Shown piece after piece: positions 9,453-13,725 of a stretch of DNA of 64,000 bases. The stretch lies in NCBI RefSeq assembly GCF_003991155.1, contig NZ_CP031295.1; one strand, written 5' to 3'. How positions within the stretch are numbered: the first letter of the stretch is position 1; the number at the start of each line of letters is the position of its first letter. The position numbers and the translations under genes are program-made. The notes under the pieces were generated by a model. It saw nothing but the letters and a program-made list of their open reading frames with translations. It made no database searches and was not told the DNA's origin. This DNA comes from Escherichia coli. GTDB lineage: Bacteria > Pseudomonadota > Gammaproteobacteria > Enterobacterales > Enterobacteriaceae.

Positions 9453-9713
9453 GTGCGGGGCATCACCGGAGATATGAGGATGAGCGAATATTTCAGAATA
9501 CTTCAGGGACTGCCTGACGGTCCTTTTACCCGCAAACATGCCGAAGCCGTTGCCGCACAGTACCGGAACGTCTTTATCGAGGATGACCACGGCGAACAGT
9601 TTCGCCTGGTTGTCCGTAATAACGGTGCAATAGTCTGGCGTACCTGGAATTTTGAGGACGGTGCCGGGTACTGGATGAACCATGTCATCAGGGATTTCGG
9701 GATTCTTAAGTAA
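9453..9713 (+). CDS. hypothetical leading-region protein (86 aa)
   Basis: ORF between ssb and psiB; no motif recognised; position matches small conserved ORFs of F-like leading regions. Confidence 0.5.
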
Positions 9714-9992
9714 GAGAGGTGCCCGACGCGCGAACGTCCGCCGCAGATTATCGCAGCCCTGAATAAGGCAGGGCTGTCCGGTGCCGCACGGGACGCGGAG
9801 AAGATGAAGAAAGGTGATGCGGCTGAACATGCAGAGCACCATATGAAAGACAACCGCTGGGTGCCTGGCTGGATGTGTGCACCACATCCACAGACGGATA
9901 CCACTGAACGCACCGATAACCTGGCTGATGCCGCCTGATAAACAACCACACCGCCCCGCCGGAGACGGGGCGGCAGCAAGGGAGATACCGTG

Positions 9993-10427
9993 ATGAAAAC
10001 TGAACTGACCCTGAATGTATTACAGACCATGAGCGCACAGGAATATGAAGATATCCGGGCAGCCGGAAGTGATGAACGTCGTGAGCTGACACACGCCGTG
10101 ATGCGGGAACTGGATGCGCCGGACAACTGGACGATGAACGGCGAGTACGGCAGCGAGTTTGGCGGATTTTTCCCCGTCCAGGTCCGTTTCACGCCTGCCC
10201 ACGAACGTTTCCACCTGGCGTTATGTTCACCGGGCGATGTCTCTCAGGTCTGGGTGCTGGTTCTGGTGAATGCCGGTGGTGAGCCGTTTGCGGTGGTTCA
10301 GGTACAGCGGCGGTTTGCACCGGAAGCCGTCAGCCATTCACTGGCACTGGCGGCGTCACTGGACGCGCAGGGGTACAGCGTCAGTGACATCATCCATATC
10401 CTGATGGCGGAAGGAGGTCAGGCATGA
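9993..10427 (+). CDS. psiB: PsiB, plasmid SOS inhibition protein (anti-RecA)
   Basis: 144 aa from [13 protein letters not shown]...; matches F/R100 PsiB. Confidence 0.9.
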
Positions 10428-11140
10428 GCGCACGTTCACAGGCACTGGTTCCTCTCAGCACAGAGCAACAGGCCGCATGGCGGGCGGTGGCGGAGACCGA
10501 AAAACGCCGCCATCAGGGTAACACGCTGGCTGAATATCCGTATGCGGGGGCGTTTTTCCGCTGTCTGAACGGAAGCCGCAGGATATCGCTGTCTGACCTG
10601 CGATTTTTCATGCCGTCCCTGACCGCAGAAGAACTGCACGGCAACCGTCTTCAGTGGCTGTATGCCATCGATGTGCTGATTGAAACACAGGGCGAGGTTG
10701 CCTCCTTCCCCTCCGGTGATGCAGCAGAGCGCTTGTTCCCGTCGGTGCGGTTTCGTGTCAGGGAACGCAGTCGCCATAAATCCGCGCTGGTCATGCAGAA
10801 GTACAGCCGCCAGCAGGCGAGGGAGGCAGAGCAGAAAGCCCGTGCGTACCAGGCGCTGGTCGCTCAGGCTGAAATCGAACTGGCATTCCATTCGCCGGAA
10901 ACAGTCGGAAGCTGGCATGCACGCTGGAGTGACCGGGTGGCAGAGCATGACCTGGAAACCCTGTTCTGGCAGTGGGGCGAGCGTTTTCCGTCACTGGCCG
11001 GAATGGAACGCTGGCAGTGGCAGGATATGCCATTCTGGCAGGTCATCGCAGAGGCTGGTATGGCGGCAAGGGTGGTCGGTCATGCTGTTCGTGAGATGGA
11101 GCGGTGGATGGTGCCGAACAAACTCCGGGAGGCAGCGTGA
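10424..11140 (+). CDS. psiA: PsiA, plasmid SOS inhibition protein A
   Basis: 238 aa ORF overlapping the psiB stop; matches F PsiA. Confidence 0.9.
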
Positions 11141-11334
11141 TGCGGCAACAATCACACGGATTTCCCGTGAACGGTCTGAATGAGCGGATTATTTTCAGGG
11201 AAAGTGAGTGTGGTCAGCGTGCAGGTATATGGGCTATGATGTGCCCGGCGCTTGAGGCTTTCTGCCTCATGACGTGAAGGTGGTTTGTTGCCGTGTTGTG
11301 TGGCAGAAAGAAGATAGCCCCGTAGTAAGTTAAT

Positions 11335-11400
11335 TTTCATTAACCACCACGAGGCATCCCTATGTCTAGTCCACATCAGGATAGCCTCTTACCGCGCTTT
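11335..11400 (-). ncRNA. sok: putative Sok/FlmB antisense RNA of the hok/mok module
   Basis: inferred by position: antisense to the mok start/hok leader; exact ends not determined. Confidence 0.35.
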
Positions 11401-11574
11401 GCGCAAGGAGAAGAAGGCCATGAAACTACCACGAAGTTCCCTTGTCTGGTGTGTGTTGATCGTGTGTCTCACACTGTTGATATTCACTTATCTGACACGA
11501 AAATCGCTGTGCGAGATTCGTTACAGAGACGGACACAGGGAGGTGGCGGCTTTCATGGCTTACGAATCCGGTAA
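11362..11574 (+). CDS. mok: Mok (modulation of killing), overlapping reading frame of the hok module
   Basis: 70 aa ORF in a different frame, covering almost all of hok. Confidence 0.7.
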
Positions 11575-11578
11575 GTAG
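11420..11578 (+). CDS. hok: Hok/FlmA family type I toxin (52 aa)
   Basis: [52 protein letters not shown]: single transmembrane helix plus conserved C-terminus of Hok; below the ORF-track size cut-off, found by reading the sequence. Confidence 0.85.
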
Positions 11579-11585
11579 CAACCTG

Positions 11586-11610
11586 GAGGCGGGCGCAGGC
11601 CCGCCTTTTC
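11586..11610 (+). terminator. rho-independent terminator after hok
   Basis: GC hairpin ggcgggcgcaggcccgcc followed by TTTT. Confidence 0.6.
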
Positions 11611-12124
11611 AGGACTGATGCTGGTCTGACTACTGAAGCGCCTTTATAAAGGGGCTGCTGGTTCGCCGGTAGCCCCTTTCTCCTTGCTGATGTTGTACGG
11701 GCATGAACAACCTGACTTCAGGAAGGTCGTTTCCCTTCAGGAACGGGGATGAACGCGCGCCTGCGGCGCCCGTTCTTTTCCCCCGCCTTCTCTGGTTATG
11801 GCCTGTCAGAAATCACATCACCTTCCCTGTGATTATTCTCTTTTTCTTCCTGCTCTGATTCTGACTACTGCAGTGTTGTCCTGTCTGCCGGGCGTACCTT
11901 CGGCTCCCGGCTGCCTGGCGGCATCCGGTCGTCAGGCCCGACTCCGACAGGCAGCTGCTGGCGCACCTGCCAGTCTCCGCCGAACCCGCTGGCGCGGTTT
12001 CGGGCTGTCGCTACGGTCCGATGCGTGAAAACCCCTGGCTTGCAGCGACCGTTCCGGTCGCGCCGCCTCTGTCGCGCCGTGACCTGCGCTCCCGGCATCC
12101 CGGCAAAAGGCGCCGGGATGTAAG

Positions 12125-12478
12125 GCGCAACGCCGTTTCGCAAACCGCGCTTCACGTCGTTGCGGCGGGTCCCTGCCCGTTGTTGTGTCCGGTGCCATTC
12201 ACCAGTTTAAGCCCCTGTCGCCGGGGGCATAGACAGCCACAACCGTCTCCGCCAGTCCAGGGGTGAAATGCACATCCCGCAAAACTTTTTGCCCAGAAGC
12301 AGGCAAAAACTTTTGCGGTCTGCCCCCGGACAGTCGTTTCCGGCCGTGGCAGTGATGCCCCATGCGGCGAAGGTTCTCAAACAGGTGATGGTGAATACCG
12401 GAGGGAACAAAAGGCAGGTCCCCGCAAAACGTCAAAACCGCGGCTCCCGAAACTCAACAGATGATGGGGGCTGAAAAC
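12125..12478 (+). promoter_or_regulatory. Frpo/ssi-like leading-region element, copy 2
   Basis: ~90% identical direct repeat of 8500-8860, directly upstream of the 95-aa ORF; lacks ~20 bp of the distal palindrome arm. Confidence 0.55.
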
Positions 12479-12498
12479 CAGAGAGAGGAGAAAGCAGG

Positions 12499-12786
12499 AT
12501 GAGTACCCGAAATATCCACGTTAACACCGCGTCGTACACGCTTCTTGTTGCCGGGAAGAAAAAAAACACCGGGGAAGAGTGGGACGTCCTGGAATTCAGC
12601 AGCCTGACTGAGCTGAAAAAATATCGCAAAAGCCACCCGGAAAAGATGGCCTTCAGTTATAGCTACGCGCTCAGTCAGGGTGTGGATAAGCAGTTCCGCC
12701 ATATCAACATTGCGGAAGCCGATCACTTCAAACAGTTCCTGCGTCAGATTAAGCGTGCCGGCCTCGATATCCGGGCGATCTGCTGA
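12499..12786 (+). CDS. hypothetical leading-region protein (95 aa)
   Basis: ORF with RBS GGAGAGGAG, directly downstream of the second Frpo-like element; no motif recognised. Confidence 0.5.
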   Translation: MSTRNIHVNTASYTLLVAGKKKNTGEEWDVLEFSSLTELKKYRKSHPEKMAFSYSYALSQGVDKQFRHINIAEADHFKQFLRQIKRAGLDIRAIC

Positions 12787-12903
12787 CCGGATGTGATGAA
12801 TATCCCTCCTGATTGTTGCAATCTTGTTAATGGAGATCGGGGGGATGATATTAAGCGGAAAAATTTTTTATTAAATTTATTCTTTCATAAAGGAGTAGCT
12901 GTT

Positions 12904-13725
12904 ATGCGATTAGCTTCCCGTTTTGGTCGGTATAATTCCATCCGCCGTGAACGTCCTTTAACGGATGATGAATTAATGCAGTTCGTGCCTTCGGTATTTT
13001 CCGGTGATAAACATGAGTCCCGGAGTGAACGTTATACGTATATTCCAACAATCAATATCATCAATAAGTTACGTGATGAAGGTTTCCAGCCATTCTTTGC
13101 CTGTCAGAGTCGGATTCGTGATTTGGGACGTCGCGAATACAGTAAACATATGTTACGTCTTCGCAGGGAAGGGCATATTAACGGACAGGAAGTTCCTGAA
13201 ATTATCCTGCTTAATTCACATGATGGTTCATCCAGTTATCAGATGATCCCCGGAATTTTTCGTTTTGTCTGCACAAATGGCCTGGTGTGCGGAAATAATT
13301 TTGGCGAAATCCGCGTTCCACATAAAGGTGATATTGTCGGGCAGGTTATCGAGGGAGCGTATGAAGTGCTCGGTGTCTTTGATAAGGTCACTGATAATAT
13401 GGAGGCGATGAAAGAAATTCATCTTAACAGTGACGAGCAACATTTATTTGGCAGAGCTGCACTGATGGTCAGGTATGAAGATGAAAATAAAACGCCAGTG
13501 ACACCTGAACAGATAATTACTCCCCGTCGTCGGGAAGACAAACAGAACGATCTCTGGACAACCTGGCAGCGGGTTCAGGAGAATATGATAAAAGGTGGAT
13601 TATCGGGGCGAAGTGCCTCCGGGAAAAATACCAGGACAAGAGCCATTACAGGTATTGATGGTGATATAAGAATCAACAAGGCGTTATGGGTGATTGCCGA
13701 ACAGTTCAGAAAGTGGAAGTCATGA
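12904..13725 (+). CDS. orf273-like leading-region protein
   Basis: 273 aa from MRLASRFGRY... with RBS AAAGGAG; size and position match F orf273; the ORF-track 5' extension rejected for lack of RBS. Confidence 0.7.
   Translation: MRLASRFGRYNSIRRERPLTDDELMQFVPSVFSGDKHESRSERYTYIPTINIINKLRDEGFQPFFACQSRIRDLGRREYSKHMLRLRREGHINGQEVPEIILLNSHDGSSSYQMIPGIFRFVCTNGLVCGNNFGEIRVPHKGDIVGQVIEGAYEVLGVFDKVTDNMEAMKEIHLNSDEQHLFGRAALMVRYEDENKTPVTPEQIITPRRREDKQNDLWTTWQRVQENMIKGGLSGRSASGKNTRTRAITGIDGDIRINKALWVIAEQFRKWKS

Follow-up and report, generated by a model that had tools for sequence, protein, structure and literature searches.

Between ssb and the lytic transglycosylase gene orf169, in the leading region of an F-type plasmid, lie several small open reading frames (ORFs), and the question raised by this locus is whether they are candidate anti-defence or establishment genes, as an earlier note on the same DNA had proposed. 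The locus occupies positions 9453-13725 of a 64,000-nucleotide stretch of Escherichia coli DNA (contig NZ_CP031295.1), the whole of which is referred to here as the window. Based on the sequence, structural and comparative evidence presented below, the interval probably comprises three named F-type early establishment genes, yfjA, ygeA and ygeB, and one relic of a fourth gene, herB, set in a streamlined leading region. The identity of the genes and the logic of their expression are essentially certain, and a role of ygeA and ygeB in productive conjugation has been shown in F, from which it would extend by analogy to the window. All three genes had been named, and an anti-defence role for leading-region genes of this kind had been hypothesised, before; the window adds no new gene. 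The features on which the argument turns are as follows, with lengths in amino acids (aa).

9480..9713, + strand: yfjA/yubL, 77 aa, DUF905 (UPF0401); Pfam PF06006, E=1.7e-31; phrog_8779, E=5e-30
9741..9938, + strand: 3' relic of yfjB/herB, a ParB-like gene of 652 aa, reduced to its last 65 codons; deletion junction at 9740
12499..12786, + strand: ygeA/yubO (orf95), 95 aa; no Pfam family; small family on Enterobacterales plasmids
12904..13725, + strand: ygeB/yubP (orf273), 273 aa, DUF932 (= DUF945, UPF0380); PF06067, E=5.8e-52; phrog_12094, E=1.6e-137
8480..8866, - strand: Frpo-type single-stranded DNA (ssDNA) promoter hairpin, ssb-proximal; ssDNA fold -126.4 kcal/mol, z=-14.1; 94% identical to the F Frpo copies
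12100..12480, - strand: Frpo-type ssDNA promoter hairpin, oriT-proximal (F Frpo1); ssDNA fold -113.1 kcal/mol, z=-11.1
14618-14627, - strand: exact match to GGTGTGGTGC, which we take to be the core of the F-type nic site of the origin of transfer (oriT)

Three named genes and a herB relic

The ORFs that the earlier note could not assign do have an identity: three belong to the named families yfjA/yubL, ygeA/yubO and ygeB/yubP, and the fourth is a pseudogene relic. The 95-aa ORF that follows the second Frpo element (ygeA) had been placed correctly and is preceded by the Shine-Dalgarno sequence GAGAGGAG. The 86-aa ORF at 9453-9713 does contain a gene, but its start was wrong, being a GTG extension of the true ATG at 9480 that gives the 77 aa found in RefSeq relatives; likewise, the orf273-like protein is present and starts at the ATG at 12904, the mechanical 310-aa ORF from the GTG at 12793 being an over-extension. 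None of yfjA, ygeA and ygeB is a chance ORF, as all have diverged homologues with conserved cores, and the AlphaFold2 (AF2) models of YgeB and YgeA are moderate and fair, respectively.

YfjA (isoelectric point, pI, 6.25) is identical to the F protein at 76 of 77 residues and is a DUF905 protein, the PF06006 match covering model positions 2-69 of 70. Its residues 11-75 align (E=2e-19) to PDB 2HJJ, the nuclear magnetic resonance structure of E. coli YkfF, a DUF905/UPF0401 member of the same family. YkfF is encoded on the K-12 chromosome, in the CP4-6 island, whereas YfjA is a plasmid protein, and the solved structure of YkfF gave no mechanism.

YgeB (pI 9.25) is identical to the F protein at 270 of 273 residues, and its PF06067 match spans model positions 1-227 of 227, so that it belongs to DUF932. 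It falls outside the TIGR03299 subfamily, scoring 19.5 bits against a cut-off of 110.7. Searches of the PDB with the single sequence and with a profile reached only sugar epimerases at chance level (E~0.01). Below ~65% identity, the list of homologues contains no more than a handful of island-type relatives (53-56%) and an outlier (43%); because this alignment is shallow, the YgeB model is only moderate (mean predicted local distance difference test, pLDDT, 71.7), and it is weakest (pLDDT <50) at the conserved NSHDGSSSYQ / FRFVCxNG segment. The E. coli island proteins YfjQ and YafZ (DUF932, UPF0380) share YgeB's Pfam family and are ~55-69% identical; in contrast to the plasmid-borne YgeB they lie on integrated elements, lack a ygeA partner and head an antirestriction/RadC/CbtA-CbeA block. 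In a related Rahnella island, DUF932 is followed by YfjT, RadC and CbtA/CbeA, with neither an Antirestrict gene nor ygeA. A survey of the literature on DUF932, DUF905, yafZ, yfjQ, ykfF and orf95/273 found no functional study.

YgeA (pI 9.63) is identical to the F protein at 93 of 95 residues and has no significant match in Pfam. Its AF2 model (mean pLDDT 80.4) has a predicted beta-beta-alpha-beta-beta-alpha fold, and residues E48, Y54 and Y56 are invariant in the conserved core. The family is very small, numbering 76 cluster representatives out of 1.84 billion, and many of the 76 are fragments. PDB searches with the single sequence and with the family profile stayed at chance level (best E~0.09), and a fold search of AFDB50 found uncharacterised Enterobacterales relatives and, beyond them, noise. 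The distant homologues of YgeA that were examined (seven loci, five proteins) all lie in leading-type neighbourhoods, some next to SLT-TraM-TraA and others among Antirestrict, AcrVA2-like, LPD29/30, SprT-like, KorA, DUF905, DUF3560 and StbA-like genes. A gene-free gap of ~0.1-1.2 kb precedes these homologues; among the six full-length loci, four have one longer than 0.5 kb. In one locus the gap holds Frpo-like DNA, and in none of the seven loci does a DUF932 gene follow. Among 5426 complete E. coli genomes, 726 carry an unrelated 98-aa gene in place of ygeA between Frpo1 and ygeB, so that a replaceable cassette occupies the first position after Frpo1. The product of this substitute had no significant match in Pfam or PHROG; one example is:

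Locus L012 (NZ_JBUBJC010000002), 2658-2954: 98-aa gene in the ygeA slot, WP_001272245

A further arrangement is found in locus L007, where a 227-aa protein (P0168, 3939-4622) consists of an unrelated 134-aa N-terminal part fused to a YgeA-like domain. Two Frpo-like copies, each with an ORF after it, lie in that locus downstream of an Antirestrict gene.

The fourth ORF has a different history. An unlisted ORF of about 45 codons had been pointed out between yfjA and psiB; the open frame exists (+ strand, 9804-9938, 44 codons from ATG), but it is not a gene in its own right, since it corresponds to residues 609-652 of HerB within the 65-codon in-frame tail of yfjB/herB. The alignment with NZ_CP019261 and F breaks at 9740, where 1,796 bp have been lost; the missing DNA is the start and ~90% of a 652-aa gene belonging to the ParB/RepB/Spo0J family that lies between DUF905 and psiB. 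The 65 remaining codons translate in frame with a single substitution relative to the NZ_CP019261 orthologue. A tblastn search of the whole window with F HerB matched at residues 586-652 only (91% identity), and the relic matches phrog_7783 at profile positions 580-616 of 634 only. HerB (YfjB) is a ParB-like clamp that binds CTP and contains a helix-turn-helix (HTH); its D4 dimerisation core is novel, and in the recipient it attaches to the chromosome and reprograms transcription (Virolle et al. 2026 preprint, PMC13370423). Of its domains, D1-D3 and the greater part of D4 have been lost here; the relic has no CTP-binding domain, HTH or D4 dimerisation core and is no functional homologue of HerB. 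The NCBI annotation pipeline (PGAP) labels it a pseudogene in NZ_CP023835 ('incomplete; missing N-terminus').

By these comparisons, the relic is a non-functional pseudogene remnant. One might instead suppose that the 44-codon ORF encodes a functional micro-protein, the C-terminal helix of HerB having been kept for a purpose. It has a GGAG 5 nt before its ATG, it sits within the Frpo-driven ssb-psiB transcription unit, and the junction is 100% conserved, occurring identically in at least 362 PLSDB plasmids and in 393 of the 5426 complete E. coli genomes. This conservation is, however, explained by recent clonal spread, the surrounding DNA being ~99% identical. Moreover, residues 609-652 are the end of a four-helix subdomain (577-625) and a flexible tail unresolved by cryo-electron microscopy, nothing is left of the dimerisation core, the HTH or the CTP-binding domain, PGAP calls a pseudogene, and loss-of-function mutations in the homologous parB-like gene recur in experimental evolution. 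A functional micro-protein is thus highly improbable. In NZ_CP023835 (locus L010, 1705-3606), which has the same herB junction, a group II intron (ltrA) interrupts ssb, an IS150 lies between psiA and hok, and the upstream methylase gene is kept, though frameshifted; the herB deletion is therefore found on several different leading-region backgrounds.

Expression from the incoming strand

The nic motif lies on the - strand, which is therefore the transferred strand (T-strand). It follows that the leading region is everything below ~14620 and that the + strand genes in it have the incoming single strand as their template; those of 8884-13725 should accordingly be readable from it. A second exact copy of the 10-mer GGTGTGGTGC occurs at 36254-36263 (+) inside the tra region, where ~0.1 chance matches are expected (128 kb, both strands).

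Two long, stable hairpins on the transferred strand stand upstream of T-strand-templated genes, the arrangement that defines an Frpo operon, and the stretch 12029-14700, which includes the oriT-proximal element, is 97.7% identical to F. By analogy with F, where the function has been shown, the ssb-proximal Frpo would drive ssb, yfjA, the herB relic, psiB and psiA in + sense, and the oriT-proximal one would drive ygeA and ygeB. Because the F orthologues are 98-99% identical, the following mechanism can be applied to the window genes. The - strand would enter the recipient with its 5' end leading, starting from nic at ~14622, and each Frpo segment on it would fold into a long hairpin mimicking a duplex sigma-70 promoter. 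Host RNA polymerase would then read back toward oriT, producing a short burst of the + strand genes that would stop once the complementary strand has been synthesised. Fusions of the F proteins YgeA, YfjA, YfjB, PsiB and Ssb are produced before conversion from single- to double-stranded DNA, peak at ~5 min and are absent from donors; this early expression in transconjugants is transient and Frpo1/Frpo2-dependent, and induction of YgeA-sfGFP is lost on deletion of Frpo1 (PMC9849209). Transcripts regulated by Frpo1/2 are also enriched in RNA-seq of transconjugants (PMC12672017). Rifampicin sensitivity at the Frpo loci has been reported solely for the initiation of early conversion.

Both Frpo copies (8845-8883; 12461-12502) end with ATGATGGGGGCTGAAAAC, encoding MMGAEN. 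Before ssb this segment is in frame and forms a 13-codon extension; before ygeA it makes up a mini-ORF of 13 codons, the TGA of which overlaps the ygeA ATG (ATGA), and this arrangement of the codons suggests translational coupling of the mini-ORF and ygeA. Distant YgeA homologues start further upstream in the mini-ORF frame (MHTQNVNVKTAA...).

ORFs inside the Frpo hairpins (8643-8858, 71 aa; 12268-12474, 68 aa) were also considered as genes and rejected. When the two copies are compared, their differences fall 4/4/1 at codon positions 1/2/3; owing to the symmetry of the hairpin, the ORF also aligns with its reverse strand at ~44%, and it is not present in one diverged Frpo-like element (locus L007). 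To judge from their substitution pattern and symmetry, these ORFs look non-coding. RefSeq lists them as 'hypothetical protein', and they correspond to the YdaB/YdfB/YgdA family, described as the largest leading-region 'family' (Samuel et al. 2024).

Establishment, mutual neutralisation or anti-defence

The closest characterised system is the F plasmid (Couturier et al. 2023, PMC9849209), in which yfjA, ygeA and ygeB have the same order, strand, Frpo promoters and distance from oriT as in the window and encode proteins that are 99%, 98% and 99% identical, respectively. In F, the transconjugant frequency is 92.6% for the wild type, 25.2% for ΔFrpo1, 3.9% for ΔygeA, 14.5% for ΔFrpo1 ΔygeA and 32.7% for ΔFrpo1 ΔygeAB, and the ΔygeA defect was seen in isogenic K-12 matings, in which there is no restriction barrier (PMC9849209). 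Through their 98-99% identical orthologues, the reading of ygeA and ygeB as establishment genes is supported. YgeA and YgeB would thus be early establishment factors for productive conjugation, isogenic cells included; because the phenotype is isogenic, they would act on the processing of the incoming plasmid or on the physiology of the recipient and not on restriction barriers. The genetics of F also suggest that their doses must be balanced. Deletion of Frpo2 abolishes early expression of the ssb and yfjA fusions yet leaves isogenic conjugation unaffected, and Δssb has no effect (PMC9849209); YfjA would be an accessory of the ssb-psiB operon that can be dispensed with under laboratory conditions. 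The ygeA-ygeB block (coverage >=80%) is found in 2298 of the 5426 complete E. coli genomes (~42%), almost always on plasmids.

The F data could also reflect a toxin-antitoxin-like or mutually neutralising pair, which would stabilise the leading region or penalise incomplete transfer instead of serving establishment as such. A deletion of ygeB alone could not be constructed in F (PMC9849209), and ΔygeA (3.9%) is worse than either ΔFrpo1 ΔygeA (14.5%) or ΔFrpo1 ΔygeAB (32.7%), which suggests that each product is harmful alone. The two genes are, however, not obligately linked: the distant ygeA homologues at the seven loci (five proteins) are without DUF932, ygeB follows an unrelated gene in 726 E. 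coli genomes, and DUF932 occurs without ygeA in chromosomal islands. Such separate inheritance indicates independent modules and argues against a dedicated toxin-antitoxin pair. A 117-bp spacer (12787-12903) also separates ygeA from ygeB, the proteins are undetectable in vegetative donors, unlike those of an addiction module, and a hok/sok locus already adjoins. Such a pair is therefore unlikely, and an assignment of ygeA-ygeB to a type II toxin-antitoxin family was rejected, adjacency and co-inheritance not being maintained. The other alternative is that YgeA, YgeB and/or YfjA are undescribed anti-defence proteins, acting early against restriction, CRISPR, ssDNA sensing or another system before the plasmid is attacked. 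Their position in the leading region and their Frpo control agree with this, as does the variable ygeA slot, a pattern typical of arms-race loci, and in a window that has lost both yfgB/ArdB and herB, any counter-defence encoded in the leading region would have to come from these ORFs. The idea has also been published, and the hypothesis of the earlier note with it: in Samuel et al. 2024, DUF905/YubL (4709 members) and DUF945/YubP (4661) rank second and third in size among the leading-region families, both are called 'uncharacterized' and 'putative anti-defence', and YubP is placed at median position 1 from oriT. In the same study, only one of the 4661 DUF945/YubP members matched an anti-restriction structure, P1 Hdf, and YubO was a small family with no matches. 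The anti-restriction benefit of the F leading region has, moreover, been attributed to yfgB (93% identical to ArdB), under another ssDNA promoter, ssp2, and the ygeA phenotype arises where there is no defence barrier.

Our own searches gave anti-defence no support. The profile and structure searches advocated in the earlier note assigned DUF905 and DUF932 but disclosed no similarity to Ard, Acr or anti-restriction-modification folds. Pfam returned nothing else for the four ORFs, PADLOC no match, NCBIfam none but the sub-threshold TIGR03299 for YgeB, and PHROGs families of 'unknown function' only. The absence of a recognisable ardA-type gene holds in the Pfam scan of the four ORFs, with no ArdA query having been run against the window, and YfjA, YgeA and YgeB had no Pfam match to ArdA-type families or to ArdB/KlcA (PF03230). 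Neither sequence nor fold searches revealed a likeness to solved Ard, KlcA, Ocr or Acr proteins, and no fold similarity to anti-CRISPRs with solved structures was seen. ArdA and Ocr mimic DNA and are strongly acidic; YgeA and YgeB, being basic (pI 9.6 and 9.25), are not mimics of this style, nor would YfjA be one, and YgeA and YgeB differ likewise from the neighbouring SOS inhibitor PsiB (PDB 3NCT; pI 4.7). With ArdA, ArdB/KlcA, Ocr and the anti-CRISPRs, these genes share only a niche, namely the leading region and early expression. Several points nevertheless weigh against establishment as the whole account. In one E. coli island, a DUF932 gene lies 55 bp upstream of a PF03230 (KlcA-type) Antirestrict gene in a block with RadC and CbtA/CbeA-type genes, and the YgeA homologues sit among Antirestrict, AcrVA2-like, LPD29/30 and SprT-like genes; such neighbours are what an anti-defence role predicts, and they are compatible with it without demonstrating it. 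The low pLDDT at the conserved segment of YgeB makes the negative fold search weak evidence, and the isogenic phenotype may go together with an additional anti-defence role in foreign hosts. The functional data are all transferred from F, the plasmid of the window being known from its sequence. In F itself, the deletions may carry polar or dosage artefacts (ΔygeA brings Frpo1 beside ygeB), ΔFrpo1 also takes out a primer and roadblock element, and the 3-h plating assays compound secondary transfer. On balance, the positional logic of the earlier note stands, as does establishment for ygeA and ygeB; anti-defence is a live alternative, but an unsupported and rather doubtful one.

A streamlined leading region and what it offers

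To judge from its closest relatives, the window belongs to an IncF plasmid of the ColV type, one that carries aerobactin genes, with 9453-13725 forming the oriT-proximal part of a leading region of F type. The best megablast matches of 9000-14000 and 1-12000 (99.3-99.4%) are ColV-type plasmids with iuc/iut aerobactin genes, IS1 and sopAB, and the matches run to thousands of IncF (MOBF/MPF_F) plasmids from E. coli, Salmonella, Klebsiella and Shigella. The interval is colinear with F, pAPEC-1 and NZ_CP019261; pAPEC-1 (NC_011980) shares the window's gene order: iutA, IS1, sopA, sopB, Frpo, ssb, DUF905, psiB, psiA, hok, Frpo, orf95, DUF932, SLT and traM. The remaining genes of the region are:

8884..9423, + strand: ssb, plasmid single-stranded-DNA-binding protein; 173/179 identical to F Ssb; annotated in relatives
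9993..10427, + strand: psiB, SOS inhibitor; 138/144 identical to F PsiB
10424..11140, + strand: psiA, an ORF; annotated in relatives as plasmid SOS inhibition protein A
11420..11578, + strand: hok-type toxin (flmA) of a hok/sok locus; from the ORF translation, Hok family toxin in relatives
14022..14531, - strand: orf169/ygfA/yubQ, lytic transglycosylase; an ORF, with SLT annotation in relatives

Since orf169/ygfA lies on the opposite strand, the T-strand cannot express it; YgfA is expressed late in F (PMC9849209). Tandem repeats in a 43-bp register (7595-8110) directly follow sopB (6533-7504) and are presumably the sopC centromere, which in this lineage would adjoin the leading region directly.

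Relative to F, the leading region has undergone two deletions of ~1.7-1.8 kb each, one affecting herB and the other a yfgB segment. F carries yfjB/herB between yfjA and psiB and yfgB upstream of ssb, whereas the window has neither, and sopB/sopC adjoin its leading region. F positions 56529-58261, with yfgB (ArdB-like) and a DUF1380 gene, are missing between ssi-like repeats (window 8140-8501, junction ~8492-8501), and a C-terminal remnant of an F 258-aa ORF is kept at 8111-8304. Searches of the whole 64 kb with tblastn found no match to the F YfgB, methylase or DUF1380 proteins, nor to the DUF3560 and S-adenosylmethionine (SAM)-methyltransferase proteins of a relative. As read from these alignments, both functionally characterised F leading genes, yfgB and herB, are lost in this lineage. 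In experimental evolution of IncI1 plasmids, the homologous parB-like gene was repeatedly inactivated, often through recombination of one ssi repeat with another, and the accompanying gain in transfer was specific to the strain; the natural deletions described here fit this pattern by analogy.

Given the loss of yfgB and herB in a widespread lineage, it is conceivable, if still tentative, that ygeA-ygeB, and possibly yfjA, provide an undescribed minimal activity for the establishment of a single-stranded plasmid. If true, this might be, for example, the protection or processing of the T-strand end, or the neutralisation of a ubiquitous host response to ssDNA, and variation at the ygeA slot would adapt this activity to different hosts. 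The Frpo1 cassette ygeA-ygeB stands alone in the F leading region in showing a strong laboratory phenotype in conjugation (PMC9849209), and the question of the biochemistry of YgeA and YgeB has already been raised (PMC9849209, PMC11541004). The window offers a natural minimal leading region, ssb-yfjA-psiBA-hok/sok-ygeAB, without herB, ArdB/KlcA or methylase, and is therefore a convenient genetic background for the remaining uncharacterised genes. As plasmids carrying ygeA-ygeB spread virulence and resistance genes, the biochemistry of this cassette is worth learning.

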